A stretch of 64,000 nucleotides of DNA from Takakia lepidozioides (taxonomy: Eukaryota > Plantae > Bryophyta). The translations under genes were made by a program, and so were the position numbers. Shown one piece after another: positions 501-64,000 of the stretch; position 1 is the stretch's first letter; the number at the start of each line of letters is the position of its first letter. Location of the stretch: the NCBI GenBank assembly GCA_030704615.1, contig CM060734.1, positions 37,758,001 through 37,822,000 on the forward strand, in the 5' to 3' direction. The notes under the pieces were generated by a model that saw only the letters and a program-made list of their open reading frames with translations, was not told the origin of the DNA and made no database searches.

Positions 501-537
501 GTATTAGCCATAGGTGGAGAGTCGCTGGGATAGATAC

Positions 538-34127: not shown

Positions 34128-35364
34128 TACGAACTGTAAAAGAAGGCTGCCACATTGCTTTTGGGCGAAATTAAGGCAAACTGCATCAGATAATTACTGG
34201 CAGGTTAGGCATTTACCTCTCTGGCAACATGTCCACTCGTTTCCATCTCGGAACCGCTGTCACATCAGTAGTTATTTTCAAGATATGTTTGCTGCTTGTC
34301 TAATTGAGTACATTTTAGCACATTTCTGGAGCCAGTCCAGCTCTGTATTTTAGAACTAAAAGTAGCAAGAAAACCAATAGGCATCAGTCCAGTTTACTGT
34401 GGGAAGGTAGACTGAGGACAAGTACTATCCCACACCAAACGTCTAGCTTCACTTATTGCTCTGATGATTTTACTCGGGTACACTGCCTGGCTCATTTGAT
34501 GTACAGGAGCATCCTTGCTGTCAGTCTGGGAAAGTCTTCTTTCCAAAGATGGAGATCAGATAAACGAGGTGTCTGAAGCAGAAAAGGAAATAGCAGAAGC
34601 CATCTCTCTCCCTCTCTCCCTCTTCAGAGCAGATGCACTCACATTTGCTCACCATGAGTAAATTTTGGTACATTTGCATTGGGTGGGAACCAGCGGGTGC
34701 AAAGGAATGCATTTAGAATTTACTTATGTGAAATGTCAAAACTACAATATGTACTTTGAGTTTGTAATCATATATACTAGGGGTAAAATTAGTATGTAAA
34801 ACTTTAGTTTTGAGATTTACATCTTGTCGAAAAGTTTACTGGTGTCAACTGCATTGCTGGGTGGTTGCATTCGGGATGGGGATTTGCAAACAGCCCGCGC
34901 CACAATATGTGTAGAATCTGTTTGTCCAGCCCGCATTTTACCGCAATCTAGGTTTTAGGGTGGTAGGCACTTCGGTAGATGGCCAGGTTGCTAATTTGCA
35001 GTAAAAATGCTTGTGTGCTCTCTTCATTTGTCTTACACTTTATGTGCTGACTAGATACATTGTATAGATGGTGTATGTCATATGATACACTGAAAGACTA
35101 TTCTTCTTGAGGTAGGATATGGTCCACACCACCCAAAATCTCACAAGCATAGTGAAGATGGTGTAGGCACTTTTGCAGTGTCAGATCAGCATCACTAACT
35201 TACTCCTTCGATGTGCATAGCGGGCCGACCTGGACATCAAAACAGGTAATCCTCCCTCAGATAGAACGACAAGAGAACCATGGAAAACCAGAACACATAT
35301 TGGTATGAAACCTGTATTCAAAGTTGAAGAAAACTTCAATTTGACATCTGCGCTTGGCCATTAC

Positions 35365-35645
35365 TTTCTGTTGGAAGTGTGTGGCGGCACTCATACTCTA
35401 CTGCAGGGGTAGTATTGTTGGCGTGGTATGCACACAGAGGTGCAACGGTTCGTGGCTAGGTGCATGGTGTGTAACAGGGTGCGTGCTTCATTCAACGCCT
35501 CTACACCCCAATTGCATCCTCTTCCGATCATGGGATTGGGCTACAAATGGAGTCTTGATTTCACAGGACCGTTACCACTGACGATGCGCCACCACAGATA
35601 TGAGTTGGTGATGGTGGAGCACTTCTCCAAGTGGATTGAGTCCAA
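35365..35645 (+). mobile_element. Gypsy integrase fragment, same family as 41430-41690
   Basis: MHTEVQRFVARCMVCNRVRASFNA..LHPLPIMGLGYKWSLDFTGPLP closely parallels ORF 41475-41744. Confidence 0.88.
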
Positions 35646-39585: not shown

Positions 39586-39903
39586 CCGCTTCCCTCTTTC
39601 TCGACAGACCACAACACTGCTTCAAAAGGCTTATCCTGAGATTTGGATGAATTTTGTTTTCATCGATGATAATGAGGACAGGTCTCAGTGTTATATTAGG
39701 GCGTAGACACACGAGCGGCAATGGAGATGAATGGGAGACGACCATTGGCCGAGGGGAAAGCGCACACTAACACAGGGGAGGAAGCACGTTCTACCGGAAG
39801 GTGATGTGTCTACTGACGTGGACAGTTTTGGAAACCGCAGCACTTCCAGGCACTTCACGATGGAAGTGTCGCGCGTCTATGAAAAGTGTTGTCTTGACGT
39901 GAA

Positions 39904-40910
39904 ATGCAGGGCCCACCATCGTCTTCTTTCTTTGCGAAGCTCTTCACGAAGCTCTCTTTACTACGGGTCACCACGAAAAGGTGTGTGTTCACGATAGGGT
40001 TTAGGAGGCCTCATGGAACCCACAGAGCAGTTACCCGTCATAGACTTGGAAGAGGGGAATGGTCATCAGTCGTGCAACATGCGATTTCAAATACGTACAC
40101 ACCAGGTTCATTTTCACAATTGTTGGGTGAATACCCTCACCCAAATCCTCCGCAGATGTTCTACTCAAACATGGGACCATCCAATTTCCACCCAAGTTGG
40201 GCACAAGCACCACCTCCTGCTTCTTCAACTACGACTGGTACTGCACCAAAGAGAACGGCGTGTAACGTCAAAAAGGAATCCGATGGGTCTGTTGCTCCAG
40301 CACCTAAGAAGAAAAGGGTGTCCAAAAAAAAAATGATCAAGGATCTCACGGAGAACGAGTTGGAAGAAATACGGCAGGGTGGACCTTGGAAGGAGCATTG
40401 GGTGATCCACCTCATCACTTTGCGAGGAGAAATGCAAGATGTGTTTTCATCACCACCAAAACAAGGTATGTATTCTCTTCAGTGTCACTGGCAAAACCTA
40501 TGCATGCAAATGTAATCGACAGTTTGGTATAGCTCGTAACAAACTGAATTCCTACAGTGAGCCATTAACAGGCATTAGTCACTCATCTCTATAACCACTC
40601 TGCAAAACCTAATTGTCATTCATGAATGATTTGTCATAATTCCCCATGGTTTATTTGGTGTGCAGGTGTGGATAATTGGTCATGTCTGCACACGAAGTTG
40701 GTTGCAGTGTGTCCCGAGTTTACAAAGGACAGTGAGGCATGTCGAAAAAAATGGCAGGCTATTTACAAAGACTACAAGGAGGATAAGCCTCTCAATGGAA
40801 TTTCTGAAAATGATAGGTCTGATAAGTGCAAATGGTTCGATTTGGTAGATCAGTATATGCACGATCGAGCCAATGTCGTTACTCGTGCACACAGATGTGC
40901 TCATGAGCCA
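39904..40910 (+). pseudogene. Myb/SANT-like (trihelix) DNA-binding ORF, probably the second ORF of a PIF/Harbinger transposon, truncated at the 3' end
   Basis: WKEHWVIHLITLRGEMQ..(intron ~40466-40665)..W..LHTKL..DSEACRKKWQAIYKDYK..CKWFDLVDQYM. Confidence 0.7.
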
Positions 40911-43050
40911 AAAGGTTTGAATGCCCTATGAGGAACTCAAGGCTCGATTGACTTCTGCACATATTCTGAGGCGGCCAATTCGGGGCGGCATTTCCAGCTA
41001 CATACGGATTGGAGTATGCTGGGGATTGGAGCAGTGCTCACACATGTGGATGATGAGGGAAGAGAGTTCGTAGTGGCATATGCTAGCTGCTCGACAATGA
41101 TGCCGCCGAGGCAAAGTATAGTTCATATGAAGGGGAGTGTCTAGCTGCGGTATGGGCAGTGGCACATTTCAGATGCTACCTCTATGGCAATTTCTTCACC
41201 TTTGTCACGGATCACCAACCATTGAAGTGGTTGATGGAGTCAGACAAGCTTACAGGGAAGCTTGCATGGTGGGCACTTATGCTTCAAGAGTACGACTTTC
41301 AGGTGGTGCATCGAGCCGGTATTGTCAATCGGGATGCAGATGGATTGAGTCATAATCCATGCACGAGCGAGCATGATGATACTGGAGCTCGGTGGCATGA
41401 TGAGACAGATGAGGAGATGGTGTCAGGATGGCACGCACTCATAGTTTGCTGCAAGGCAGTATTGGTGGGGGGGCATGCACACGGATGTGCAACAGTTAGT
41501 GGCAAGATGCATGGTGTGTGATAGAGTGCGGACTTCTTTCAATGCCCCTACTCCACAATTGCATCATTTACCCATTATGGGTTTGGGCTGTCGTTGGAGT
41601 CTTGACTTCGTAGGTCCATTGCCATTAACGATTCACCATAACAAGTATGTGTTGATGGTGGTGGAACACTTCTCCAAATGGATTGAACTGGTGGCATTGC
41701 CTGACATGGCAAGTGAGGGGGCTGCGTATGCATTCTTAGATTGAGTGCTTAGCCATTTTGGTGCTCCAGCCGAGGTACTCACGGATCAGAGGAGAGAGTT
41801 CTTGGGGGAATTTCAGGCTTTGTGTGAGCAAGCCTTGATAGATCACCGCACTACTTCTCGGGATCATCCGGAGCTGATTGCTTGGCTGAGAGAGTTGTTC
41901 AAACAGTCAAGTGAGGTTTGCGCAAGTACGGTTTGCAGAAGGGACATCTAGGAGATTGGGACCTTCAGCTGCCTTGGCTAGCTATGGGCTATAGGTTCAG
42001 CAAACAAGCTTCACTTGCCTCCTTCTCACCTTACTTTCTTCTCTTCGGTCGAGAGCCGGATTTGCCTGCATCTATTCGCAGGGAGGCTGCAGTAGTTCTC
42101 AACCTTGATGATCCGGATGTGTAGACACAAGCATGTGCCCAGCGGGCAGAGTCGTTCAAGAGAGTCATGCCTATGGCTTTTGAGAACCTTGCTATTGCCC
42201 AACACCGAGACACATTGAGGTACGCCACTATACGTGGAGGGGGATATCGGCCAAGTGTTCGGCATTTCTACCCTGGGGACTATGTGTATTTGCAGTAAAC
42301 AGTATCTACGACCTTGGATGTCACAGCAGGACGTGTGGTTCTAAGGGTCAGGGAGGTGTTGCCTTCAGAAGTATTGATTCTGGAGGGTCGAGATGACATT
42401 GTATGGAAGGACCATGTGCGTAATTGTGCGCCATGTCACATTCCACATATGGATGGGAGGATAGATCCCAACCTTGCAATGGTACCTACAGGGTTGCGTT
42501 GCATGTTGGTGGCGCCGCAACCATATTGGTGTGTGACAAATGCTCAAGGGGGTGGCACGTGGGATGCTTGACACCGCCACTTGAGAAGGTTCCTATCGGA
42601 AAATGGTTGTGTCCACGATGCCTTGGACAGAGGTGGTGGGCATGACAATGGTGAGGCGGATAAGTGATCCAAGGTCTAGCTAGTGGGGCTTCAATGCCAT
42701 GGATATCAACTAAAGATCATGGATTGCATGAAGGCGACTAACGATGGGGCTACGTTTGCACCCGGTCTCTTTATCTATCGACTTCAGGTGTTGGGACTTG
42801 TGCGATTGAAGACCAAACGATGATCTTATTGGGGTGGATACTTGCAAGCTATCCGGTGTTAGAGGGACCTAATCACCAGCTAGGGGAGCGATTGTGGCGT
42901 GGCTTTCTAGGACTGTATGCTAGGAAGTGTGGTTGGACAACGATGTATGTTGTGGCACGATGCTTAGGTACACGACAGCTGTCATGGTTTTGTTTGTGAT
43001 TAGTTAGAAATAGTTATTTCTCTAATTAGGAATCTAGCCGTGATAAAAGT
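40910..43050 (+). mobile_element. Ty3/Gypsy 3' half: RNase H - integrase - PHD finger - PPT/LTR start; degenerate
   Basis: FQLHTDWS..GIGAVL, VTDHQPLKWL, ADGLS, WSLDFVGPLP, EVLTDQ..EF, SPYFLLFGREP; PHD VCDKCSRGWHVGCLTPPLEKVPIGKWLCPRC; TAGGGGAGCGAT followed by TG at ~42893. Confidence 0.88.
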
Positions 43051-43329
43051 TTGAGCCTAACTTCTACACGGCGTCTCCGCATGCATGCTAGGAACACTCA
43101 ACTATTTTCCTGCCTTCTTTTCACTGCCAGCAATGTCTATACCCGGGTGAACAGAATTCTAAGCTCTTTTCATGTTTTTCTATGGCCAAAGACAATTCAG
43201 ACCGATGACATCCTCCAACATTGTTGGTGGTGGGACCTTTTCCTCGTTAGGGTGAGGCAAGACACAATTGGCAATATAGATATCATTCACCTCAACCCAC
43301 CACAATCCTTCAGGTATGACACGGCAGTG

Positions 43330-44520
43330 ATATAACTTGATCACACTAGTTGTTAAAAATGTGTCAAGCCATAGCACACCACAATTGGAGCAATTGGCAA
43401 GAACATAGGCCCATTTAAGTACCCGAACGTCCGAAAACTTGAACAACAAATGTAGATCTGTTGGGGGCCAGACCACAACCCCTTAAATATCTTGAAGCCA
43501 TAATATATTGATCAAACTAGTTGTGAGAAATTCTCCAAGCCATAACACACCACAATTGGAGCAATTGGCAAGGAGATAGACCCATCTGAATAGTTGAAAG
43601 TCCGGAAACTTGAACTACAAGTGCAAGATCTATTGGGGGCCAGACCACAACCCTTTAAGAAAATTCAGAGCTTAGGAGACCACCATAACTTGATCACACT
43701 AAATGTTAGAAATGTTTCAAACCATAGCACACCACAATTGGAGCAATTGGCAAGGACATAGGCCCATCTGAATAGTTGAACGTCCGGAAACTTGAACTAC
43801 AAGTGCAGATCTATTGGGGGCCAAACACAACAAGTGTAGATCTGTTGGGGGCCAGACCACAACCCCTTAAGAAAATTCAGAGCTTAGGAGGCTACCATAC
43901 CTTGATCACACTGGTTGTTAGAAATGTTTCAAGCCATAGCACACCACAACTGGAGCAATTGACAAGGAGATAGGCCCATCTGAGTGCATGAACGTCCGGA
44001 AACTTGAACAATAAGCAGATTTGTTGGGGGGCAGACCACAACCCCTTAATAAGATTTGGAGCTCTAGAGGCCATCATACCTTGATCACACTAGTTGTTAG
44101 AAAGTTTCAAGCCATAGCACACCACAATTGGAGAAATTGGCAAGAAGAGAGGCCCATTTGAGTACCTGAACGTCTAGAAACTTGAACAACAACTGCAGAT
44201 CTGCTGGGGCCAGACCACAACCCTTAGAAATTCCAAAGCTCTAAAGGCCATCATATGTTGATCACACTAGTTGTTAGAAATGTGCCAAGCCATAGCACAT
44301 CACAAATAGAGGAATTGGCAAGAAGATAGGCCTATCAAAGTAGCTGAATGTTTGGAAACTTGAATAACAAATGCAACTATACTGGGGGCAGACCACAACC
44401 CCTTGAAAATCTTTATGGCTCTGAAGTCTAGCATATCTTTATCACCCTACTTGCTAGAAATCCACCAAGCCATAGCACACCCAAATTGGAGAAATTGGCA
44501 TGAAGATAGGGCACAACAGA
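43330..44520. repeat. ~180-bp tandem satellite, about 6.5 copies
   Basis: Unit ttgatcacactagttgttagaaatgtttcaagccatagcacaccacaattggagcaattggcaag..cgtccggaaacttgaac..gggccagaccacaacccctt. Confidence 0.93.
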
Positions 44521-44790: not shown

Positions 44791-47700
44791 AATATATAAA
44801 TGGCTGAGCCCTAGAATACAACTTCCTGGCAATGGTGCCCTTACAGAACCGGCAACAGAAGACCCAAGCCTCAAGTGACCTACTACAGCAAAAACATGAT
44901 AAATGAAGAGGGTGAGAGCGAGATAGATGGAGAGTTGGAGAGCGCTTGGGCATGGACTAAGGAGAAGCAGACAATGTGAAAGAAAGATGGGTTAGAGAGG
45001 AGGGTGGAGAGGACGATAAGTGGTAGTAGAAATCGATAAAGACAGGCCAAAATGAACTAATTAATATGACCAAATTTAAATTATGTAATGCATGTTTGGC
45101 CATATTCGGGTCATATGAAACCTGTTTGACGTAGTTTTTGGGGGGATAGCTTCAGGGCTTACAATACTACCCACCTATACCTCATTTTTGGGCTCTTCCA
45201 AAAAGTCTATAGATTTTTCCAAAGTATATTAGATCATCTTTTTTTTTTAAATAAAAAATAAAGGGAAACACCTAAGAGCTACAGCTCACAAATCAGGCTT
45301 ATCTACTAGATGTGACATATAAAAATTTGAATGAAATGTAAACAACTATTGTCAAGCTTTGTAGTGAGTTCAATTATTTCGAAATTTTATATTTTTGGAA
45401 CTAGCTTAATTTATTTTCATTCTAAAATTCATCGTTGAAGTTTGGACATTGGAGAAAATGCAAATTTTGATGGTCTACAGCGACCCTCTACCTTATCAGA
45501 TCAGCCCATACCTAGGTCATTAGATGGTGCTCTAAGTGGAGAAGAGCTGGCTATGTTGGCTACCATATTTCAAGCTAGTTTCGTATGACCAAACATTGTT
45601 CCAGTTGAGGAAAGTGCTTCAGAGAATGAATATTGTGATTCAGATTCAGAATAAAGTTGATTGTTTGGAAGCATCTGTTCAATCATCCTACAATGATTTG
45701 GACACTTGTATGTTTTTAAAGTCTGCCACAGGTGCACAAACCACTTAAACATTTTCATGAATCACCACAAGAGTGGTACCAATCACTGAGGTGTCTTTAA
45801 CCACTTACAATCTACCACCGTCCAAGTGATACCAATCACTGCGGTGTCTTTAACCACTCACTATGTACCACTGTCCAAGTGATACCAATCACTGCGGTGT
45901 CTTTAACCACATAACATTCTAGAACTAACATGAGAGATTGAAGACCTGGCTATGTTGGCTATCTGCATTCAAACGACATTTGTACAACCAACCGCTATTC
46001 CAGTTGAGGAAAGTGATTCAGAGAGTGACGAATATGTTTCAGATTAAGAATAAAGTTTATTGTTGGAACCATTTGTTCAATAGCATCATCCTACAATGGT
46101 CTGGACACTTGCCTGTTTTTCAAAGTCTGTCACAGGTGCACAAACCACTTAAAGTTTTTCATGTATCACCACAAAAGTGGTACCAATCACTGTTGTGTAG
46201 GCAACCACTCATGAGTGACCACTAGAATAGTGGTTCCAATTACTGCAGTGTCTTTCACCACCCACTTTCTACCACTGTCAAAGTGGTACAAATCAATGAG
46301 GTGTCTTTAACCACTCAAGATCAACGTGCACTCTCCCCGTCCACGTGGAGTATTATAATAATTAATTAAAATAGATTTCCAAATCATAAATCATAAATAA
46401 AATTTGAATTATTACGCGTGGAGTAGCAAGTGGTTTCAACCACTTCCCATCACTGAGGTGTCTATAACCACTCACAATGTATCACTGCACCCGTCCACGT
46501 GGAATATTATATTTATTAACTAAAATATATTATCAAATAAAAAATAAAAAATAAAAACAAATTATTACACGTGGAGTACTGTGTGGTTGAAACCACTTCC
46601 AACCACTGTCTGTGATGCCACCGTGGCATTTCATCGAGATTAACCACTGGCAAGTGGTTACTAGTGGTTTATAGAGTGGGAAAAGACAGTAGTGGTTAAA
46701 GGGCCACTGGTTATTCCGCGTTTTCTTTCTAGTGAGGAGAGTGCCGGTACGAGCACCAGCGATAATAGTGGGTATACAAGACGAGGTATGTTGTTTAGGC
46801 CACCTTTACCTTCATTGTCTTCTGAGGAAGGTTCAGACTCAGAGTCAAGAAGATTCTCGCCGAGGGTGCAAGCCATTTCCGTGCCATTGTTGTGGGATAC
46901 GATGGAGGAAATGTATGGAGCTACCAAGGGGCCATGCCATGTCGGTACTCTGGAGCTGTGGGTACCATCAAGCTTGATGATTTCATATAAGAGTTTGATA
47001 GTTGGTGTGATTTGCAGCAGATGCGCAATCCACAACTGTTTACGCCTTTCATGGAGTGGAATGGGCTGTTTCAGCACCTTCAGGGGCCGCCTGTGGATGA
47101 CTACCATGAGTTTAGGCGGGGAAATGAGATGGAGATTGAGGTGTGGCGACAATATTGGTTACCTTACTATGTCTCCATCACTAGAGGCACAAGGGCAGCG
47201 GCAACACCAGCAGCTACGCCAACATCCCCAACTGCAAGCACAAGTAGTGGGACAAGTAAAGATGGAGCTGAGAAATCCACTCAAGCTCCTGCTACAGCAC
47301 TAGCACCCGTGCCTGCCTTTAATCCAATTGTGGAGTTCTTCGAGGAGTTGAGGAGAAACTACCAGGGGATAATGACAGAGAAATTGTGGAGCTTGCGAGA
47401 GTTCCAGTCTACTGAGAGTTTGAGGGAGGCTTACACGCACATGAGACGATTGATAAATGTAACCCAAGGGGTTACAGAAGCTCAAGCAGTCCAATTCTGG
47501 TATGGGATATTGGACAAGGAGCTGAGAGGAAGGGCGTGGGATGCAACTCTCCTACAAATGGCCCAACCCACCTTAGCAAACGTGTTTTTGCTGGCAGAGC
47601 GGATAGAGCTCAATATGGTGGAAGAGCGAGTGGTCATGGTGGGGTTTGGTAAGGAAACACAACGAAGTGGGGCTCCTAGTCAACAACAACCACTACCCCA

Positions 47701-49601
47701 ACGTGCTCAAGGCAACAAAGGGGCTCAGGCAAATCCCATGGAAGCACAGAGAGGATCTCAATTGCAGAGGTTACTTCCTTCATTTCAGGCCAACAACAGT
47801 CGGGTGTGACATGTGGGATTTGGGAGGACCCCATGTTAAGAGAGATTGTCCGGAGAAAGGCAAAAGGTTGGCACAGGCACAGCCTACACAACTACAGTGT
47901 GGACATTGTGGCAAGAGGCCCATTGTTATGACTTGCATCCTGAACTACGGTCAGGCCAGTTCCAAGGGAACAATGGTGGCCGAGGACGAGGCAATGTAGT
48001 CTAGAGAGGTAGAGGAGGCAGAGGTCGTGGTGGAGGTCGTAACCAAAACCAAGGAGCACAGGGTCAAGGTCAAGGTCATGACCAAGGCATGGTGAATAAG
48101 CTTGCCCAGCTAGAGCAACGTCTTGCTGCCATGGCCACTACTAATGTTGCGCCAGCTCCAAGGCCTGAGATTCAAGCCCCACCTGCACAACCTCCTATGC
48201 CTAGAGAAGACCAGATTGGTATGGGCTTCATGTGTGGAGCCGCACTTGCTCGACCATTGCATATGGACTCTGCAACCGCTGTCACTCAAGCAACAACTCG
48301 TGCCAAGAAGACTGGATGTGGATTTTGATCCACAAAGGAGGGAAGCAAGTCGACAGACTAGGCTTCCATAGTCTTTCACATTGGCTGAGACAGTGCCAAC
48401 TACAACATCGATGATATCCGCTCGCCCAAGTGTGCCAGAGGTAGAGCCACGAGTGCCATTGGGAAGAGTTGGTGTGGCTCGGGAAATGTCAATAGGTGGT
48501 GCTGCAAAGCAAGGTGCAGCTAGTACATTGTTGGGGGCAGCTATGGCAGTTTGTCAAGCTCCATTGTTTTCTGCAATGACAATTGCAATGCCGGGGATTC
48601 GGCCAACTGTTGTGTTCAGACTAGCAGCTAGACTCTGTGAGAGTGGTGATGCATCGGCACTATCTGCGAGGATAGCGGATAAGGTACAATGGATGGATGC
48701 CATGGATTCAAGGGTGACAGCCACAGCTGCGCCATGGCAAGCGGCAGCTGCAAGTCAGGAGTTGCCAGCTAGGCCAGCCATTGAGCGCAGTATGGTGACT
48801 CCTGGGGTAGTCCTGGTGGACAATCAGGATGGTATGTTTCAGTTGGGTGGCCCAGCCGAAAGGAGGTATAGGCCACTACGGGTCTTGTTGGACTTGGGAG
48901 CACAGTCATTGATGTTGGGGAGAGCAGCAATTACAGGCTTGGGCCTTACACAGGCGGATTTGGAGCCTTGCCCTTTCCAGATTCAAACATCTTTTGATGG
49001 TTTAGAGAAAGCGCGAGGGATTACACGCCATGAGTTCTTCATTCGATTGTAGTCAGATCATCCTACGGACGGCTCAGTTATGAGAGCTAAAGCCATTGTT
49101 ACGGACGCGATGTCCTATGATGTGCTTGTTGGTGGGGCTGCGTTGTACCCCATGGGATTTACTCTGGACTTTTGAGAGGAAATTACATCCTACAGGCCAT
49201 AATGGCAGTCAGGAGATGGCCGACATGCACTGCTCCCAGTGAGGTTTATTGGGAATGTAGCGGTGGATCATAGGAACATAATGCCCACATTGGCTGCATT
49301 TTCAGGGGTGGTGGCTTGGAGTGGTGAGATCTTGGAGGGCAATAGTCATACAGATGATAGGCCATCACCTGATGAGGACAAACAATTGGCATACAAGGCT
49401 GATTTGCTTCCTCGTGCGCCTGTGTATATTCCACTGTGGGGTACGGTTGGGAATTTGCATCGAGTAGCAGACGAGTGTGTGCACCAAGCATGGTAAGAAG
49501 CATTTCCATTGATGAGTGAGGGGAGTTCAGTGACATCACCTAGACCTCCTCAGTTAGCTCCTTTGGACACAGTGCCCATTACCTGGCAACCACCTGACTC
49601 A

Positions 49602-50560
49602 AGGATTTGTTTACTAGACCTGTTTGGAGGCATGAGCACTGGGTTTGCAGGAGTGTTGCAAGCAGGGATTAAAGTACGCAAATACTTGTATGTGGAGAAG
49701 GATGAGATAGCTCGACGTATTTCTATGCGCCACATTGCCTTGCTCACACACCGATATCCTAAGTTGTTGTCTCTCTCAACAATTCAAGGATACCAAAAGG
49801 CCTTGCCAGTAGACATTACCTTGCTAGGGGCGGATGATTTGGACCGACATGGTTCCATTGACTTGGTGATAGCCGGATGGCCTTGCCAAGGACACTCTCC
49901 CGCAGGTCATGGGAATGGCTTGCATGATGCACGATCGCATTTGTTTTGGGAGATGTTACGAGTGTTGCGGGACTTGCAGATGAGGCAAGTGTAACCTCTA
50001 GGCTATATCTTGGAGAATGTTCCTCTTATAGAGGATTTTCGGGCCAAGGTTATGGCCAGTGTGCATCAGGTGCGGTCTTGGATTGGATCGGCGGCACTAT
50101 TGGATGAAGCAGTGGTGGGATCACACGCATCGACCTCGATTGTGGTGGACCAATCTTGCACCACTAGAACTGCTCAAGAGAGCATACGATTCCATTCAAC
50201 GGCCATCCAATCTCACGGTTGAGGGCATTTTGGACCAAGGGAGGCAACCACAGAGGGTGCGACATGATGACCATCCACATCTAACAGTGGTCAATCGAGT
50301 GGGGCAGCCACGTGCGGCCTTGCCTATACTTATGAGCTTCCCCTTGTCTTATGCTTTCCGAGACAATGATCCTGGATTGATTTGGGATAGTGTGCTACAG
50401 CAATTGGTGGAGCCTAATGCGGATGAGCGGGAGCGGACAATGGGTTTTACCACGAGCACTACAGATGTGCCAGCTCTATCAAAGGTATCACGCTGCCAAG
50501 TGTTGGGTCAAGCAATGGATCTAAATTGCTTGACATGGATAATTGGCTTGTGCATGGGTG
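49602..50560 (+). pseudogene. C5-cytosine DNA methyltransferase domain (DNMT3-like, non-permuted) within the Gypsy polyprotein
   Basis: Motifs in order: I LLDLFGG, II YVEKD, III DI, IV IAGWPCQG (Cys codon 49884-49886), V LFWE, VI ILENV, VIII HRPRLWWTN, IX ERERTMGF, X LGQAMD. One stop (49992-49994) and one frameshift (~50125). Confidence 0.92.
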
Positions 50561-51194
50561 AACAACGGAGATTGCAGCATTGGTGACTACTTCTACACTC
50601 CTATTAAATAGTGCATCCTCCCTGCCAACCGGGACGGTTGAGGCAGTGAGTGGGGGCGAGCACAGGATCGCAAACACCCATGGCACATGTGGGATGAGAT
50701 GCGCAAAGAGAGAGTCATTGGATCTCTCAAGCAGCAGTATGAGGAGTCGGGAGAGCCATGGACTGAGGATCAGTTGGAGGCCAAGGTGGCCAAGGTTTTT
50801 GAGGAGATTGAGGATATTTCTTGCGCGGAGGATGTTCTCAAGGTGGATGGCGGAGCAAGTGAAGGCTACGCCACAGTCATATTGGGCGGACAAGGCCTAA
50901 GAGGTTGTTATCTAGCAACCAAAGGATTCGTCTCCTACCTCCAAGCCTGGTGTATCCAAGGTTGCAATCACTGAGGACAATTAGGAACCAGATGTTGGAC
51001 CTACAGTCACCGGAGGAGAACGACGGAGGATCCAGCGATTTCTAAGGGCTTATAGAAATTGTTTTGCCTTCGGTTTGAAGGATTTTGGGAGCTTGAAGGG
51101 TCAGGAGATTCGTATTGATTTGGCAAGTGACACGTCAATCTTTCAAAGGCCCTACCAGTTCCTCTTTTTTCCCGGAGACTTAAGCTGTTTCTTC

Positions 51195-54100
51195 TGTCAC
51201 GGACATAGCCCAGAGGAACTTACCAGGAGTAAATACCAGAAGTTATCAAGTTACCATGTTATCAAAAGTTACCATGGCTTACCGTGATTTACCGTGATCT
51301 ACCATGATTTACCATTACTTACCAAGTTACCGGAAGTTTACCAAATTACCAAGAGTAACTTGGGAAACTGCTCAGGAAGCTTCATTTGGAGGAAACTTCT
51401 CCATCAAGATACCCCCTTTGTTTAAGGAAGCTTCTCCATCAAGAAACCTCCATAGGGGAAGCTTCTTAGGGAATTTCTTAGTAGCCAGTATATATAGGAG
51501 GCGAGACTGGACACTCTTCAGTCTCGCCAACACAAGTTCAAGCTATTCTTGTTCCTCGTCCCAGTACTCTAGTCCAGTTTCCAGTATCTGGTACTCCAGT
51601 CCAGTTTCCAGCATTCCAATATTCGAGTCGAGTTCCAGTATCTTGTACTCTTGTCCATTGTTATAGAGATCATCTTGATTTATGTTTATCCACCATGCAC
51701 TCGGCCACGCCGACCTTGATTTCTTGTCTAGTCTTGTACCTCTAGTCTAATCTCTTGTTTGTGTTCGGTCATGTTCTCATCCTTGACAGTTTGGCGAGAC
51801 TAAAGTTTGTTCCTTAGTTAGTTAAGATGGAAGACACATTTGCGGAAATGGTCGCCACATTGCAGAGTCTTCAGCTCCAGCTGCAAGAACTTCGTACCTC
51901 TACCGCCCAATTGCAAGCTGATCAGTCTCAAGATCTTGGCAACGCTCTCCACAATTCACAACAACAAATTTCAGAGTTAAATGAGTCGAACAATGGATCT
52001 TCAACCATACGAGTCTCTACTGCAACAGCTCCTACTGCAACGGTTCATCTTCAACAGATTACGAGAGAACCAAAGATCAGCATGCCCGAGAAATTTGATA
52101 GGACGAGATCAAGATTTCGCGGTTTTGTTCAACAAGTACGACTGTTCCTACGACTACATCCACAACGCTACCCCGATGAAGGTATTCAAGTGGGATTCGT
52201 GGGCACCCTTCTATCAGGCACTGCCCTATCTTGGTTTGCACCGCTATTAGAAAACAAATTCGTATTTACTATATAATTTTGAAGCATTCATGTCCGAGTT
52301 CACTGCAACGTTTGGAGAGAATGATAGAGAGAGAGTGACAAAGATGCGAAATCTTCAACAAAGAGCACGTCCTGCTTCCGTTTATGCTGCCGAATTTTGA
52401 CAACTTGCGTGCGATCTCGACTGGAATGAGAAAAACCTCATTAGTCAGTTTCGATGTGGACTAAAAGATGATGTAAAAGATTTGTTGCCGACAATGTCAA
52501 ATGTGAGCGTACTGAGTGAATTCATCACCCAAGTCATTGCATGCGATAATCGTTTGTTCGAAAGACGTCAAGAAAAGCGATCTGGATGGTCGACGACGCA
52601 TCATGTCACTGCTACTACGGCACCAAACACAATGATCCATCAGACATCCGGTAGTGATCTTATGCAGATCAGAGTGCAAAATCGAGAGATCTCTGTAGAA
52701 GCACTTTTGGACTCAGGGGCTTCAGCTTGTTTTATGGACAAAAACTTTGCAAAGCAACACAATTTAACGCTCGTAAAGAAGAAACTTTTGGCCCCCGTTG
52801 AAGTCATCGATGGACGACCGTTAACATCAGGAAATGTGAACCATGAAACTCGACCACTTGAAATGAAGCTTAAAGACCAAGCATCATATATTGTTTTCAA
52901 CGTCATCCAGTCTCCAACGAATCATGTGATCCTTGGGCTTCCCTAGTTCGTACTTCACAATCCCGACATCGATTGGCGATCGCGAAAACAAATTGTAGAA
53001 ATATCAAAAATATTCAACCCTTATTCCTTGGAGCTAGAGCTTTCATGAAAGCTACCAAAAAAGAGGCGGCATTTGTACTTTATGCGATTCCGATCAAGAC
53101 CACAATAGACAAAGGTACTTCAACATTACCCGCTCAATATCAAGATTTCAACGATGTCTTCGAGAATAAAAATGCAGACATATTGCCAGAACATCGATCT
53201 TATGACTGTGCAATTGAGTTACAAGAAAGAGCCCAACCACCATTTGGCCCAATCTATAACTTATCGCAAACGGAGTTGGCTACATTACGTGAATACATTG
53301 ATGAAAATTTGTCGAAGCACTTCATCAGACATTCAAAATCACCTGCGGGGGCGCCTATCTTGTTTGTGAAAAAGAAGGATGGATCATTACGCATGTGTGT
53401 CGACTATCGTGGTCTCAACAAAATCACAATCAAGAATCGTTATCCGTTGCCGCTGATTTCTGGGCTTCTCGACCAGCTAGAACGAGCGAAGATTTTCACC
53501 AAAATTGACTTGAGAGGAGTTTATAACCTTGTACGGATAAAAGAATGAGACGAATGGAAAACAACTTTTCAAACAAAGTATGGACATTTTGAATACAGTG
53601 TTATGTCTTTCGGTCTTACAAATGCTCCAGCAATTTTCCAACATATGATGAATGACATTTTTCGAGAATTTTTAGATGACTTTGTAGTCATCTATTTGGA
53701 TGACATTTTGATATTTTCACAGAATGAAGAAGAACATGGCCGCGATGTACGCCTTGTCCTTGATAAATTAAGAGAAAGAGGACTATATGCCAAGTTGGAG
53801 AAATGTCTTTTCCATCAATCTGAGGTCGAATTTATGGGCTACATTATTTCCGACAAAGGTGTCTTTATGGATCAGAAGAAAATACAAACCATCATCGAGT
53901 GGATTAAACCAACTTCGGTCCGAGATATACAATGTTTTTTGGGCTTTGCAAATTTCTATAGAATCTTCATCAATGACTACTCCAAAATTGTTGCACCATT
54001 GACACAACTCATATGGAAGGACAAATTTGTATGGGACAAGAAGGCTGACCAGACATTTGAAAGGTTGAAGCAGGCATTTACAACGGGTACATGCAGACCC

Positions 54101-56366
54101 ATCTAAACCATTCTTCTTGGAAGCAGATGCATCAGACTTTGCACTTAGCGCTATACTTTCTCAATACGGTACGGATGGCCGATTTTACCCTGTTGGTTTT
54201 CGTTCTCGCAAATTTTCCGCTGCAGAGATCAATTATGAAATCCATGATAAAGAACTTCTAGTGATCATCGATGCTTTTGAGGAGTGGCGTCATCTACTGG
54301 AGGGAGCTAAACATCAGGTCATTGTCTACACCGATCACAAAAATCTCGAATATTTTATGAGTGCTCGTGTTTTGAATCGACGTCAAGTCAGATAGGGTAT
54401 GTCACTAGCAAGGTTTGATTTTGTTATTACCTATCGCCCCGGACATCTTCAAGGGAAACCCGATGCTCTTTCTCGACGATCGTATCTTGCGCCGAAAAAA
54501 AAGGAGGCAGCTTTCGACCAACATAAATCCATCATCTTGAAACCAAGAAATCTCCAATTGAATATGCTATCCATGTCCACCTATGACAATGCAGAGATCA
54601 TAAAAGAGATTCAGGAAGCACTGAAGAGTGACCAATTTGCTACGACACTACGAAGTCAACTAAATCAACCTCGAGACAACCCACAGGTTACAAACGACTT
54701 CAAAGATGGATTACTTTATTTCAAGAGACTTCTCTATGTACCTCTAGGACCTACACGGCTTCGAATTCTTCAAATATGTCATGATCTTCCGGCTGCAGGA
54801 CATTTCGGCTTCAACAAAACAATGGAATTGATATCCAGGGACTATTGGTGGCCGCAGATGTGGAAACTCGTGAAAGAATTTATAAAATCTTGCGACACGT
54901 ATGCTAGAGCGAATGGACCACGACATTGACCTTACGGCCTTCTTCAACCATTACCCATTCCCAAGGGTCCATGGTCGTCCGTGTCTATGGACTTTATTAC
55001 GGACCTTCCAATTCCCAATACCACCGATTCAATTTTTGTTATGGTAGATTGTTTTACGAAAATAACACATTTCATTCCATGTAATAAGACTGTTACCGGT
55101 GAGGAAACTGCAAGACTCTTCCTCAATAATATCTACCGCATTCATGGATTCCTGAAGGACATCATATCTGATCGAGGACCACAGTTCATATCAAATTTCT
55201 GGAGGGGATTAATTCACATATTGGATACTAAGATCAACCTCTCTACAGCTAATCATCCACAGACTAATGGTTAAACCGAAAGTGTAAGTCAGATTTTGGA
55301 GCAGTATCTTCGCTGTACGATAAATTATCACCAAGATAATTGGACGAACCTTCTATCATTGGCTGAGTTTGCCTACAACAACACTATACATTCTTCGACC
55401 AAGCATTTTTTTCCAATTATGGTCATCATCCTCGAGCAAACCCGTTCCACATGAAGACTGTTGGAAGCCCTGCTGCAGAAAACTTTGCTACTCATCTTGC
55501 TACGATTCACAAGGAGCTTACATTCCACCTCGCAGAAGCTCAAAAACAATACAAGGAGTATGCAGATCAACGTCGCCAACTCCAACCCCAGTTCAAGGTC
55601 GGAGATTGTGTGTGGTTCCTTCAACGGGACAAACAAACCTCGCGACCATCAAGAAAGTTGGATTATCAACGAAGTATGCGCATCCATTCAGTCTTTCATG
55701 TTTCATTATTGGAGTCGTATCATCCATCGAATATTCCAGAGAGAGTCTCCGTACCACCTCCACCAATTGAAGTCAATCGGGAAATTAAGTATAAAGTCGA
55801 CGAAGTCCTAGACTCTCGCATCAAGTATAAACGTCTTGAGTATTTCGTACATTGGAAAGGCTACGACATCAGCGAATGAACGTGGGAACCTTCATCCAAC
55901 CTCGCCAATGCATCTGACAAAGTCCAAGAGTTTCATCAACGATATCCAACTAAGCCCCGAGCCCCGTCAATAAGACAACACGACGACGATGGCAGTCAAG
56001 TTAGCTTCAAGGTGAAGACTCCACATTCAGTGTACCTGACACACACTAAGGAGGGAGGTTTTCCAACTCTAAGCAAGTCCAAGATTTTACCGCTCCTCGA
56101 GGAACTCGGCGATAGAGGAAGGGGTGATGTCACGGACATAGCCCAGAGGAACATACCAGGAGTAGATATTAGAAGTTACCAAGTTACCATGTTACCGAAA
56201 GTTACCATGACTTACCGTGATTTACCGTAATCTACCATGATTTACCATTACTTATCAAGTTACCGGGAGTTTATCAAATTACTAAGAGTAACTTGGGAAA
56301 CTGCTCATGAAGCTTCTTTTGGAGGAAACTTCTCCATCAAGATACCTTTTTTGCTTAAGGAAGCTT
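51195..56366 (+). mobile_element. Tcn1-like chromovirus (Gypsy) nested in the RT of the DNMT element: 5' LTR 51195-51788, gag-PR-RT-RH-INT-chromodomain, PPT, truncated 3' LTR 56128-56366
   Basis: LTR TGTCA..TGACA; REPKISMPEKFD, ALLDSGAS, YLDDILIFS, EADASDFA, SMDFITDLP; chromodomain YKVDEVLDSR..EYFVHWKGY; PPT GATAGAGGAAGGGGTGA. Confidence 0.95.
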
Positions 56367-57699
56367 GTTTGTACCAATGGCGGTTCTTACCGTTTGGGTT
56401 GAAGATGCTCCTGCAGAGTTTCAGAGGGTCATGGATAGGATTCTCGCGGGGCTAGACTTCGCCTGGTGCTACATTGATGACATCATCGTCTTTAGTGCTA
56501 TAGTTGAGGAGCGCCATGAGAGACACCTTCAGGTGATGTTGGAGCGCTTGAGAGCGCACGGGTTGAAATTGCACCCTGGAAAGTGCAAGTTCTTCCACAA
56601 TCAGATTGAGTATCTGGGCCACATGATATACCCTGGAGGATTGGGTGTTCAACAGACAAAGGTGGAGGCCATTGCATGCATTCCACGCCCCATGGATGTG
56701 AGCAGAGTTTGTGCTTTCATGGGATTGACAAACTACTATCGACGGTTTGTCAAGGGATTTAACAACATTGCAAAAGCTCTTACCAAGTTGACCAATAATT
56801 TAGCCACTCGTACCCTTTTTCAAAATCCTTAAAAAAAACCCTGGACACCACCAAAATCTGATACCCCCTCACACTAAAAACATCCTACCGTGCAGGGAAT
56901 TTATGATTTTCGTGTGCCGTTTATTGGAGCATGTAGAGGACAATGACACGTACATTTTTTCATTCGACGGACTGCATGATCATCCGACTTCATGCATGGA
57001 AGTTATGGCATGTATGAAAAATGAAGCGACTCGAAAATCGATCGCGTCATCGTTTCGGGGTTAAGCCTATGGTACTCTTTGAGTTGAATTAAGCTTTTGG
57101 CTTTCTTGAAGGTGCTGATTTATTGATATGTCATTAGGGATTATGACATGGCAATTTTCCATTCTCAAAATAAATATAAGAAGCGGAAATTATGGTGTAT
57201 CTTTCTCCCGATGGAGTACTTGCCACTACGGCATTATGTTGGAAGTAGGCACTTTGAACCCTAGATCACCTAGGTCATGCACAAGCAAGGCACAATCTCC
57301 CAACCACTTGGCTGCATGCTCTAATGCTCCCCAAATTAACACCAAATTCCCAAGGCTTCTCATTAGAAGATATTAGGGTCTTTAAGACCACGGACTTAGT
57401 GTATTGAACGACGCAAAGAAGGGTGGAAGGGCTTCCAACCTAGCGCTAACTGCGGTAGGGCTCAGGGGAGACAAGAGGGGCCATGACCAGCCTCATAACC
57501 ACATAAAACATTAAAAGTGTAAGACTTTCTAGGAAATAGTAGGTAGTGCAATGGTGAAGAACCTCCAATGGTACCTATTAAGGATTGTGTTCAGTTTCAA
57601 GTGGGAGCTACGAGTCTTAATTATAATAAATATTTTTTGAACTCGTTATTCCGCAAAAAAATTTCTAAGTCCTGATTTCTTTTATGTTGCAAGCGGGCA

Positions 57700-59365: not shown

Positions 59366-62300
59366 TGTCGCGGCCCTTTGCCTTGAGGGCAAAGGGTCGG
59401 GACACGAGAGGGCTGCCCCTGTGGTGGGGGCAGTGGCAACAATAGGTACGGGGGCTGAAGCACCCTTGAGTGCCCAAGGCACTCAAGGAGGCGGAGGTGC
59501 TCACTAGGTAGAGCCCCGCACACCGGGTTGCGGTGGGGGTGGTTCCACGAGGGGTGATGGTAGCTTAGTGGGTTTTAGTGGGGGTGGCATAGGACTCACC
59601 ATGGGGCGGAGACCTTGTGGTGGGAGTCGTGGGGAGTCTTGGGACTCATCACGGTCCTATGGGGCCGTGGTAGGTGGGCCAAGATTCACCGCGACTCATC
59701 ACCGGGAATGGAGGGTCTTCATGATGGTTCGCCATAAAATGACTGGGTTGTTTGTGAAACCCCCGCGGACAGTCACAAAAGTATATATAGGGAGTAGTAA
59801 CCCCGAGAACGGTGCAAGCCCGTTGTGTGACCAAAAATAGTGAGTAAGCGGCGAGCGACCAAGGTGTGGGGAGCTGTTCGGACTGCCAACAACCAAAGGG
59901 AATTTCACTAGGCCCAAATTGAGCGAGGGTCTGGTGGAGGAGTAAAGGGGGACCGTTATGTCCCGGTGAGCAGCCGAAGCTCCGAGTTGGCCGGCGGCCA
60001 GTTTGGGAGTTAGACGCGCGTATCAAAGCGAGTAACTATGACCTGAAGGGGAGCTTACCGAAGTGAGGTGCGCGACACTTGGTATCAGAGCTTAGAGTTC
60101 AGTACGCAATCGTCCTTGAGATCGGCCTCATCATGGGGTTGGGCAAGACAAAGCGAAAGCGGAACGACCCGAAAGATGATCATTGTCCCACCGGATTTTC
60201 TTCCTGAACTACTTCATCTATCACCGGTGCTACAGTGTCATGACCTTCCGCCTGTGGTACCTCCGACACAAGTGTGTGTATTATTGCCTCAGGATTTCCC
60301 TTGGGCAACTGTTGCACCTCTGGGATCTCTGTCTCCTTGACCAGACCAGAATATTCATAGAGAAGGTCCCCCTTCTCTATTTCTGCCACTATCTGTTCTG
60401 TAGTTGGAATATCTAACCCTTCTTTTTCCAAATCAATTATTTCTGGTTGAGCTGCATGGATAACTTGTGACCTTGTGACAAGTCGATCAGCTGGCCGGTG
60501 CCCCGAAAGGAAAATCAGGTGCGGCGGCTTATGGCAGACAGAAGGCGACCTTTGATGGAGTGTGTTTTAATTGCGGGGAGCCCGGGCACATGGCCAAGAA
60601 GTGCGCAAAACCCCGACAATTGAATATGACTCGGGCGACCACGGAGCTGTCCGAAGATTCCATTAGTCGCTTGGTGGAAGCGGTGGTCGCCAAGACTTGC
60701 AAGGTAGACAACTACTCTTGTGAGTTGTATCAGGAGACTGGCGCCTTGCATAAAGGGAGTCAGTTAATGTTTGTGAGTGGGATAATTTTCGGAATTAACG
60801 TGTCGTTGTTGGTGGACATAGGAGCGTCGCACTCCTTCATGACACCGGCAATGGCACGGAAGCTGGGGCTCCCGGCAATTGATGTGGGGGCCTCTATTGA
60901 AGTGCGTTCTACCAAAGGAGAACCACAATTGGCGACGAGGTTGGCGTTCGATATTCCTCTTCAGCTCGGGAGTTGGGAGGGACGTGAGAACTTCACCATT
61001 TGCGAGATCGGTGGAGTGAATCTCATTTTGGGGATGACCTTTTTGAGCAAATCCGGAGCGGTCATAGATGGCCGCAAGAAAATAGTCACGGTATCGTGTG
61101 GGAATGGTGGGGAAGTGTTACGGGTGTCAGAAATGCCCAACCGAGTGGGAGGGCAAATAAACCTGCTGTCAGCAAAGAAGTGGGCCGTGAAGGAGCCACA
61201 CGAGCCCCAAATTTTGCTTTACGTAAGACAAGTGGAAGGAGAAGTCCGATAGGGAGCGAGCCCAGATTGGATCAAGGGGATCCTGGAGAAATACCAGGAT
61301 GTGATGCCGGAGGATTTACCAAGCGGCTTGCCACCGCAAAGAGGAGTTGACCATAAGATAGAGGTGATACCAGGATCGGAGCCGCCTGCCAAGTCGCCCT
61401 ACCGGTTGAGCCACAGAGAGTTGGTTGATCTGAAAGCTCAGCTCAAGGATCTAATGTCAAAGAGGTACATCCGGCTGAGTAAGTCACCTTACGGAGCCCC
61501 GGTGCTATTTGCAGACAAGAAGGATGGGACGCTGCGGATGTGTGTCGATTACAAGGCTCTGAATAAGGTGACTATAAAAAACCGGTACCCTTTGCCAATG
61601 ATCGATGACCTCTTTGATCGGTTGGCAGGAGCGAAGTATTTTAGCCGGATCGATTTGCGCTCCGGCTACCATTAAATCCGAGTGGCGGAAGGAGATGAGG
61701 AGAAGACTGCGTGCAGGACAACATATGGTTCATATGAGTTCATGGTGATGTCTTTTGGGCTCACCAACGCACCCGCGACCTTAGCACGCTAATGAACAGC
61801 CTATTCCATGAGTGGTTGGATGACTTTGTGATCGTGTACATCGACGATATCTTGGTGTACTCGTAAACAAAGGAAGAGCACCTGGAGCACCTAAAAAGGG
61901 TGTTCCAGAAATTGCGGGAAGGGAAGTTGTATGCCAAAGCTTCAAAGTGCGAATTCGGGGTCACAAAAGTGGAGTTCCTGGGGCATGTGATTACACAGGA
62001 TGGGATCAAAATAGATGACAGAAAGGTGAGGGCGATCTTGGACTAGGAGCCTCCGACTTCGGTCCTGGGAGTGCGATCCTTCCTAGGACTCACCTCCTAT
62101 TACCGAAAGTATGTGAGAAATTTCGCCAAGATCGCGGGGCTGCTGTTAGACCTTCTATGTAAGTCCAAGGTATGGGTATGGAACACTTTTTGTGGCCAAG
62201 CTTTTGCCGAGTTGAAGTAGTGGATGGTGGAAGCTCCAGTCTTGAAAATCTCGGAGTTCAACCGTCCATTTGAGATTCATACAGATGCGTCGGATTTCGC

Positions 62301-64000
62301 AATTGGGGGTGTGCTCATGCAGGATGGACGTCCAGTGGCTTACGAAAGTAAGAAACTGAATGAAGTGGAGCGACGGTGGCCTACGCACGAGAAAGAAGTG
62401 AAGGCGGTGGTGCATTGCCTTGAGCTTTGGCGCCACTATGTTGGTTCCAACCCGGTGAAGGTGTTCACGGACAATGTCGCGGTGAAGTATTTTGCCACGC
62501 AGCCTAAGTTGTCCCAAAACAACTTAGGTGGCAAGACACTTTGGCAGTGTTCGACGTGGATATCCAATACAAACCGGGATGGGACAATGTGGTGGCCGAT
62601 GCTTTAAGTAGAAAGCAGTAGCTCATGTTGGTGTACAGGGGCGAGACGGCGCTCCAAAAGAAGCTCCGGAAGGCTTACCGGAAGGATGAGATGGCGAAGT
62701 CCGTGATGCGGGACTTGAGAATGGGAGTTAAATTTCCACTTGCACAATGGACTGCTCTGGTACAAGCAAAAGCACGTGCCGAAGGGAGGGATCAGAGATA
62801 GTCTCTTGAGAGAATGCCACGATGGTTCGCTTGCGGGCCACGGCGGAGCCAAATGCACCGCAACGCTATTGAAGAAAGAGTATTTTTAGCCCAAACTGAG
62901 GGAGGAGGCCAAGGAGTATGTCAAGACATGCACCACATGCCAACAAAATCGGAGCGAGTACAAAAAGCAAGCGGGAATTTACAACCCTTGCCGATTCTAA
63001 AGGGGTCTAGGGAAAGTGTCTCGATGGATTTCATGACTGCTATGCCGCTGTCAAAAGGATTCAATGCAATCATGGTGGTAGTGGATAGGTTCAGTAAAAT
63101 GGGCCATTTCATTCCCACTAAAGAGACGGCAACGGCGCAGGAGACGGGGCGACTTTACTTCACCCACATCTTCAAGCATCATGGACTCCCGAAGGATGTT
63201 GTCTCGGACCGCGATCCAAAGTTTACAAGTAAATTTTGGAGAGCACTTTGGAAGAAAATGAGGACGAGGCTCAAGATGAGCACCGCCTTCCGACCTACGA
63301 CGGGCGGCCAAACGGAAAGAGTGAATTCCATGGTGAAGCAGATCTTGCGGAATTATATGTCGGGAGACCAATCAGACTGGGTGGAGCACTTGGATGCGGC
63401 AAAGTTCTGTTATAATAACACAAAACACTCCGCAACTGGAGTTTTCCCTTTCGTATTGGTCTATGGAAAAGCACCTCTTGTGCCGACAAGTTGGGCCGCC
63501 CAGGACGTTGAGGAACCGTCAACAGCAGCGGTGCTGGAAGAATGCGAGCGTTTGTTGGAGCTCGTAAAGTACAACATTGCCAAAGCTAGGAAACGGTATG
63601 AACGACAGACAAATCGGAAGCGGAGGGAAATTAAGTTTGAGGCAGGCACGGAGGTCTGATTGAACATCAAGAATTTTTGACTACCTCCGGAAGTGAGTCC
63701 GAAGTTCGTACCTCCGTATGTAGGGCCCTTTTACATCCGGAAGGTTATGAATGAGGATGTGTATGAATTTGAGCTGCCGGCAAACAGCAAGGTGCATCCG
63801 GTATTCCACGTCTCCATTTTGAAGCCTTACTTCAAAGATGAAGCACGTCCGAATCGGCATCAAGTGTTGCGTCCGCCACCTGTGCTGTTGGATCATGAAA
63901 ATGAACCTGAGTACGAGGTGAAGACAGTGCTTAAGTCGAAGAGGTTCAAGAATCGAGAAACGGAGTATCTCGTGAAATGGAAGGGCTATCATCAAGTGGA
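59366..64000 (+). mobile_element. Chromovirus (Gypsy) with iMet PBS: 5' LTR 59366-60077, Zn knuckle, PR, RT, RH, INT, chromodomain; degenerate, runs off the window
   Basis: LTR TGTCGCG..CGCGACA; PBS TGGTATCAGAGC at 60080-60091; CFNCGEPGHMAKKC, LVDIGASHSF, YIDDIL, TDASDFAIGGVL, SMDF; EYEVKTVLKSK..EYLVKWKGY at ~63908-63990. Confidence 0.95.

Follow-up and report, generated by a model that had tools for sequence, protein, structure and literature searches.

A Gypsy retrotransposon bearing a DNMT3 domain, KnitGypsy-Dnmt3 of Klebsormidium nitens, has been described by de Mendoza et al. 2018 (PMC5890265), and the available part of that article also reports that DNMT3 domains borne by DIRS elements methylate CG de novo in yeast. 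Why retrotransposons keep a silencing enzyme has been an open question since 2018, partly as the species known to carry such elements are difficult to study experimentally. Here we analyse a stretch of 64,000 nucleotides from Takakia lepidozioides (contig CM060734.1; hereafter the window, within which all coordinates are given) that holds a decayed, dead copy of a Ty3/Gypsy element carrying a C5 cytosine methyltransferase (MTase). The Gypsy-DNMT3 kind of element is already known, and the new point is the gag-linked position of the enzyme at a likely leaky stop codon. Judged by sequence comparison with its relatives, the MTase is the C-terminal part of a first open reading frame (ORF1; gag, protease and DNMT), which a conserved in-frame stop separates from a second (ORF2) encoding reverse transcriptase (RT), RNase H (RH), integrase (IN) and a PHD finger.

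On the plus strand, positions 46735-51155 carry broken frames for gag, two degraded zinc knuckles, an aspartic protease, a C5-MTase and the RT N-terminus, in the order that a preliminary description of this DNA had given for the interval and that translation and comparison with relatives bear out. The parts of the copy, and the elements that cut into it, are the following.

46735..47809, plus strand: ORF1 start and gag (capsid-like), frameshifted, with the 5' repeat and leader absent; identified by tblastn to the intact ORF1 proteins P0215 and P0201 (44-60%).
47800..47945, plus strand: two degraded CCHC-type zinc knuckles, from the translation compared with knuckles of the family.
48756..49247, plus strand: aspartic protease, 53% to the family protease, with an altered catalytic motif (48885-48902) and three stops.
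49602..50560, plus strand: DNMT3-type C5 cytosine methyltransferase, with PCQ at 49881-49889 and ENV at 50013-50021; matched by PF00145, and 70% and 61% to Marchantia ORF1.
50561..50912, plus strand: acidic C-terminal tail of ORF1, frameshifted and longer than in relatives.
50913..50921, plus strand: ORF1 stop TAG followed by CAA CCA, in frame with RT and fitting the CAR-YYA readthrough consensus.
50916..51155, plus strand: ORF2 start and RT N-terminus, broken off; 54-59% to intact ORF2 proteins.
56366..56797, plus strand: RT palm of the DNMT family (YIDD); RVT_1 E 3e-17, 75% to Marchantia P0020.
51195..56366, plus strand: nested chromodomain Gypsy element (gag, protease, RT, RH, IN, chromodomain) in which no MTase was seen; its 3' long terminal repeat is truncated (56128-56366, 92% to the 5' repeat).
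45480..46734, no strand assigned: transposon end adjoining the ORF1 start, with TAGTG at 46730-46734 and sub-terminal repeats; presumably CACTA-like.

Pieces of the gag, knuckle and protease region in the window gave no Pfam match, and this region was identified by its 44-60% identity to intact relatives. The spacing is also that of the relatives, with 243 codons from the protease site to the FGG motif of the MTase (239-250 in intact relatives) and 86 codons from FGG to PCQ (86 in intact relatives). That the MTase is intronless, as had been claimed, is borne out by the offset to the independent locus L005, which remains within 48117-48158 throughout the stretch that opens ahead of the protease and closes with the MTase, leaving no gap of intron size. 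The copy's own 5' end is replaced by the CACTA-like end at 46734, and its RT is interrupted by the chromodomain Gypsy element; the RT palm at 56366-56797 is probably the continuation of the same copy, with about 120 codons lost before the palm. The preliminary description had attributed the death of the copy to a stop and a frameshift. Dead it is, and the decay exceeds that account: because of at least six internal stops (49050, 49173, 49200, 49494, 49992 and 50982), several frameshifts and the altered protease motif, we regard the copy as beyond function. An Rfam scan of 38000-64000 and a search of a viral contig collection gave no match.

With respect to the intruding elements, about 40 unexplained bases (51156-51194) precede the nested Gypsy element, whose observed/expected CpG ratio is 0.88; because of this higher CpG content we consider it younger than its target. 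The CACTA-like end contains a 400-bp internal duplication, and a matching left end was not found in the window.

PF00145, the profile that the preliminary description had proposed as a check, matches the piece 49497-49991 (E 5.4e-10, 39.7 bits, cut-off 22), while the 3' pieces of the MTase by themselves gave no Pfam match. The motifs run in canonical order from I to X (FGG 49617, YVEKD 49689, GWPCQ 49875, ILENV 50007, ERER 50419 and GQAMD 50503, with the motif numbering of the DNMT3 literature, checked against DNMT3 alignments). PCQ and ENV are intact, as had been stated; a stop lies at 49992, and motif VIII (50118-50145) is split by a frameshift near 50128. DNMT3C, DNMT3B and DNMT3A came first among the PDB matches of the window MTase. 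A profile of 60 family members likewise found DNMT3A at 1e-25 and DNMT3B/C at 1e-23 to 1e-19, against 9e-16 to 1e-12 for DRM, which aligns with only the motif I-V part, and 4e-9 for M.HhaI, in agreement with the DNMT3-like, non-permuted character proposed at the outset. The predicted structure of the intact relative P0001 (predicted local distance difference test, pLDDT, 92.4) had its best match in DNMT3B (Z 28.9, root-mean-square deviation 2.7, 279 aligned), the other Z scores being 27.7 for DNMT3A, 25.3 for M.MpeI, 21-22.7 for DNMT2 and 19.3 for DNMT1. Throughout the 60 members the catalytic cysteine is invariant, and conservation reaches 90% or more for the ENV glutamate and the arginines of motif VIII. 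By these comparisons the enzyme is a non-permuted DNMT3-type C5 methyltransferase, and catalytic activity is predicted for its intact relatives. Comparing the window MTase with seven loci, the proportion of nonsynonymous differences (pN) ranged between 0.20 and 0.28 and that of synonymous ones (pS) between 0.69 and 0.81, values resembling those of gag and protease, the constraint being slightly weaker than on RT and integrase; on these estimates the MTase is under purifying selection.

Of 370 candidates in the search with the MTase piece, 39 were longer proteins, at 49-71% identity, the named organisms being Marchantia polymorpha and Sphagnum troendelagicum. A Marchantia cluster of 18 includes several gag-knuckle-protease-MTase proteins of 1278-1281 amino acids, from autosomes and the V chromosome, and the full-length Marchantia ORF1 copies are annotated merely as hypothetical proteins; BBN20516.1 and BBN10775.1 are examples of full-length Marchantia genes. 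A metagenome scan added 51 loci, 40 with a protease upstream of the MTase (the remaining 11 begin within about 400 bp of it) and 31 with RT downstream; complete loci read gag, zinc knuckle, protease, DNMT, RT, RH, IN and PHD. Because the metagenome loci had been picked by their MTase, relatives were also searched from the gag-protease side, where 16 of the 18 proteins held the MTase, the other two ended before its place, and in none did the protease pass directly to RT. As far as these sequences reach, the MTase is a family trait and no one-off insertion. The preliminary description had named sister elements without the MTase, a target-site duplication or termini belonging to the MTase alone, and a PF00145 miss as signs to the contrary, and we found none of these.

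Phylogenetic relationships were examined by quick trees with support from the Shimodaira-Hasegawa-like approximate likelihood-ratio test (SH-aLRT), built without host DNMT3 rows. The RT palm of the window fell in a clade with Marchantia, Calypogeia and metagenome loci (SH-aLRT 96), with the ORF2 of Coleochaete scutata just outside the window-Marchantia-Calypogeia clade, and the family RT stood apart from the two chromovirus-like RTs of the window. The family occurs in land plants, by its named relatives, and the suggestion of a land-plant family was well founded. For the window itself, these relatives and a plant-type decarboxylase fragment point to a non-seed land plant as the likely host. 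Taking all these results, the element is real, conserved and functional in origin. Two further records touch the family: an intact ORF2 protein, P0161 (CAA9586175.1), carries the label of an uncultured cyanobacterium, which a binning error probably explains, and a more divergent RT-RH-IN element (L013:1-2034; 46-61%) lies immediately upstream of a family copy, with its 5' part outside the contig.

The boundary between MTase and RT was studied in 30 of the 31 loci spanning it, L040 being excluded for an insertion. The frame is kept in 25 of the 30, and all 25 have a stop at the same codon (TAG in 18, TAA in 7), followed by CAA-CCC in 23 and by CAA-CTC or CAA-CCT in the others; four of the five frameshifted loci also show the stop motif, and one has GAG. 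In five clusters the intact ORF1 proteins run on for 69-112 residues past the last MTase motif, and intact ORF2 proteins (RT-RH-IN-PHD, 1000-1080 amino acids) start a short way ahead of RT, at start codons that vary. These protein ends lend support independent of the near-copy loci. Three features had been overlooked in the preliminary description, namely TAG-CAA-CCA at 50913, the RT palm at 56366-56797 and an RH-IN-PHD end at 40927-42986. No ATG lies between the window stop and RT, and the window lineage, well diverged from the metagenome loci, has the full CAR-YYA context; the nine-base pattern TAG-CARYYA occurs five times on both strands of the window. According to the available part of PMC2194720, CAR-YYA is the plant-virus readthrough consensus after the stop, as in tobacco mosaic virus (TMV). 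We infer readthrough because the in-frame stop is conserved and because the window has this context without an ATG. A readthrough-stimulating hairpin downstream of the stop found no consistent support (z 0.12, -2.40, -0.55 and -1.32). The reading of the MTase as a polyprotein domain and not a host gene stands in that it is retrotransposon-borne, but not in that it ends ORF1 and is not simply a domain of the Pol polyprotein. Whether readthrough or re-initiation makes ORF2, the MTase would belong to the abundant gag product.

We propose that the gag-PR-DNMT protein (PR, protease) builds the particle, in which the protease would release the MTase, and that rare readthrough of the stop would supply RT, RNase H, integrase and PHD finger. 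The MTase may then methylate CG de novo in the new cDNA, before or at integration, and the PHD finger on the integrase may target chromatin; the benefit would be that new copies arrive pre-marked like host repeat DNA. That a gag-PR-DNMT frame with a leaky stop packages the MTase at gag-like abundance, where it likely methylates new cDNA, is in our judgement probable, if not strongly so.

Several observations weigh against this proposal. Being near-copies within a single family, the metagenome loci do not supply 25 independent cases of the stop; the junction is known at the DNA level from these loci and the window, Marchantia being represented by proteins alone. In the near-copies the context CAA-CCC meets five of the six consensus positions, and an ATG follows the stop in 24 of the 25, which also fits re-initiation. 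Among near-identical dead loci dN/dS was 0.57 for the MTase against 0.34-0.42 for RT, RH and IN, the protease reaching 0.92. The observed/expected CpG ratio of the element (0.43-0.56) is not below the 0.53 of the window and is uninformative. The KnitGypsy-Dnmt3 domain gave no methylation in yeast, a result that its authors call inconclusive in the part of PMC5890265 available. Many distant relatives, finally, hold the MTase inside Pol, so that abundance at the level of gag would not be needed for its role.

Among the alternatives, the strongest, although unlikely, is that the MTase does its work once the element has integrated, or in trans, methylating the insertion site or other copies of the element under guidance shared with the PHD-bearing integrase, and so limits the element itself or reshapes local chromatin instead of acting on free cDNA. 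The intact ORF2 proteins do have a PHD finger on the integrase, a product at gag level would be abundant enough for a role in trans, and self-limiting and insertion-site effects are discussed in the accessible part of PMC5890265; against this, the cDNA would be the DNA at hand in the particle given the fusion to gag and protease, and neither a nuclear localization signal nor a chromatin-reading domain was identified in ORF1. We also consider it unlikely that the same architecture produces ORF2 by re-initiation at the AUG two codons past the stop, or else translates it from a spliced RNA or one of its own. It is the ATG in 24 of the 25 loci that keeps re-initiation in play; the inconsistent hairpin agrees with it, as does Tca2, whose in-frame stop works by a mechanism left as an open question in the available part of PMC2194720. 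The window lineage, in which CAR-YYA is complete and RT is not preceded by an ATG, speaks for readthrough, and the predicted ORF2 starts switch between ATG and GTG inside a single cluster.

Retention of the domain for nucleic-acid binding, RNA methylation or structure instead of DNA methylation would agree with the inactivity of the Klebsormidium Gypsy domain in yeast (PMC5890265, in the part available), but sits badly with the invariant cysteine, the conserved glutamate and arginines, and a model fold nearest to DNMT3B and DNMT3A, above DNMT2; we hold it to be very improbable. To the capture of a host DNMT3 or DRM gene, or of an unrelated MTase cassette, once at this locus we attach next to no credence, even though broken elements lie nested in this region. 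Order and spacing are identical in liverwort, moss and metagenome relatives, there is no intron, the C-terminal DUF3444 of host plant DNMT3 is absent, and phage MTases reach just 24-31% identity among the matches listed (12 of 227 records). A single capture at the locus is refuted by the architecture conserved across relatives.

Further pieces of the family lie upstream of gag.

40927..42645, plus strand: RNase H, integrase and PHD finger of the same family (PHD E 2.9e-10).
42850..42986, plus strand: end of repeat B and the B/A junction (…GACA, two bases, TGTC…; junction at 42971-42986), matching L016, L025, L036 and L039.
35353..35640, plus strand: integrase fragment of another family copy, 76% to the family integrase and 78% identical in DNA to 41455-41686.

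In the relatives, elements start with TG and end with CA, and a 4-bp target duplication was found in five of the six loci with both ends. The arrangement A-coding-B-A-B, or its B-A-B end, was seen at four loci (L016, L025, L036 and L039) and a single B end at eight; the internal B|A junction looks like a pair of integrase-type ends with two bases between them, and the window shows one such junction only. Four loci with A-coding-B only, compared with L016 (L018, L034, L037 and L043), still bear target duplications. Such copies may arise by recombination between B repeats or by use of the inner B end by the integrase. Projected on the intact ORF2 P0232, the RT piece of the window ends at residue 324 and the upstream RH piece begins at residue 340, a gap of 15 codons, which suggests that both belong to one opened and permuted circle, although two copies would also explain them. 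Against a single permuted copy stand the different nearest relatives of the RT palm and of RH/IN (p 0.03-0.48, six reference pairs), the missing leader, and the fragment of another copy at 35353.

In a wider search among 1.84 billion representatives, 269 clusters reached E 1e-30 or better. In the best 150 of the 269 the MTase lay after RNase H or before integrase in 76, after gag/protease or before RT in 19, and alone in 55. Among ten looked up, the one named member with the order RT-RH-DNMT-IN-PHD is the pol of Scenedesmus sp. PABB004 (KAF8056149.1), a chlorophyte. These Gypsy elements share with the family a related MTase (35-44%) and a PHD-tipped integrase, and differ in that their MTase stands between RNase H and integrase within Pol. 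In the quick trees a single branch separated the RH-DNMT-IN group from all other rows, for RT (88) as well as for MTase (97), and in the MTase tree another did so for the gag-PR-DNMT-stop group, to which the window belongs (96); with the rows used, the trees fit one old capture followed by relocation of the domain. The large set with the MTase inside Pol (P0252-P0392 and P0297) is an observation in its own right, and our literature searches found no description of it. An ancient, intact clade of green-plant Gypsy elements, from algae to liverworts and mosses, that combines an active DNMT3 loaded at gag level by means of readthrough, pre-methylation of cDNA, PHD targeting and split-repeat replication with a DDE integrase may be envisaged, and as a whole we regard it as doubtful, if well short of far-fetched. 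In such a scenario, de novo DNA methylation in Marchantia would have in these copies a source that has gone uncounted.

The rest of the window is also rich in repeats. Another Gypsy element (knuckle, protease, RT, RH and IN), in which no MTase was seen, occupies 59370-64000. Three LINE-like (long interspersed nuclear element) pieces lie on the minus strand at 16526-19798, 26462-28013 and 1-460, and are considered recent because two of them are 97-100% identical. A plant-type aromatic amino acid decarboxylase fragment (386-775, minus strand; PF00282) adjoins a LINE piece; plant tyrosine/DOPA decarboxylases came first among its PDB matches, and the ESM Atlas gave no usable match. An ORF at 39898-40928, cut where the RH piece begins, is Myb/SANT-like (weak PF13837, E 0.001), presumably as in PIF/Harbinger elements. 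We also observed an array of about seven tandem units of 171-212 bp, 60-90% alike (43273-44510), a 60-bp tandem array (4553-5117) and a 1.1-kb element (11661-13072) with 82-bp inverted arms that are 99% complementary (11861-11942 and 12918-12999).

Publications on land-plant elements and methyltransferases were consulted for earlier accounts. In the literature searched, which lacked most subscription papers and Repbase, no land-plant report of a DNMT-bearing Gypsy element was found. The available parts of PMC6317226, PMC6453930, PMC10508981, PMC5784723, PMC12885004, PMC6673714 and PMC11982613 describe no such elements in land plants; that of PMC6317226 mentions neither methyltransferase nor PHD, that of PMC5784723 gives the number of DNA methyltransferases in Marchantia as five, and that of PMC6673714 calls PHD fingers common in retrotransposons. 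PMC12344493 and bioRxiv 10.64898/2026.05.21.726589, as far as available, are no more specific than 'streptophytes', for which they cite the 2018 work. The occurrence of the family in land plants is apparently unpublished. Copies of the family can make DNMT counts in bryophyte genomes too high or hard to interpret, and because the tractable Marchantia polymorpha holds full-length ORF1 copies, activity, readthrough and cDNA methylation can be tested directly.

When compared with known systems, the element differs from host plant DNMT3 (PpDNMT3a/b; Yaari et al. 2019, PMC6453930), with which it shares the DNMT3-type catalytic domain, in that the host proteins are described there, in the part available, as having a C-terminal DUF3444 and as standing outside retroelements; DUF3444 gave no Pfam match in the window pieces or intact ORF1. 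DRM is circularly permuted, unlike the window motifs, and chromoviruses end their integrase with a chromodomain where this family has a PHD finger. SymbioDIRS-Dnmt3 (PMC5890265, in the part available) is likewise a retroelement-borne DNMT3 with A-coding-B-A-B repeats, but has a DIRS RT and a tyrosine recombinase, whereas here we find a Gypsy RT, a DDE integrase, TG..CA ends and a 4-bp duplication; split repeats together with integrase-type ends constitute an unexplained replication design. MuLV (murine leukaemia virus) gag-pol, SIRE1 pol-env, Tca2 and TMV, as treated in the accessible part of PMC2194720, similarly have an in-frame stop between ORFs with CAR-YYA context; here the stop comes after protease and MTase and before RT.

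KnitGypsy-Dnmt3, compared by its description since no sequence named K. nitens was among our matches, agrees in its intronless, non-permuted DNMT3-type domain within a Gypsy element, in purifying selection on that domain, in DIRS-like split direct repeats (A-coding-B-A-B in our relatives) and in RT, RNase H and a DDE integrase after RT, of which the window has separated pieces only (PMC5890265, in the part available). Its hosts differ, those found here including liverworts and peat moss. In that description its DNMT shares the Pol ORF of RT and RNase H, whereas in this family it ends the gag-PR-DNMT ORF, in the same frame as RT but cut off from it by the conserved stop, and it is because the DNMT is not in the RT/RNase H ORF that we set the element apart; under readthrough, DNMT and RT would be joined in a minority product. 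The stop codon would place the MTase at the level of the capsid and not at that of RT, which differs from the published model of an RT-coupled enzyme in one polyprotein.

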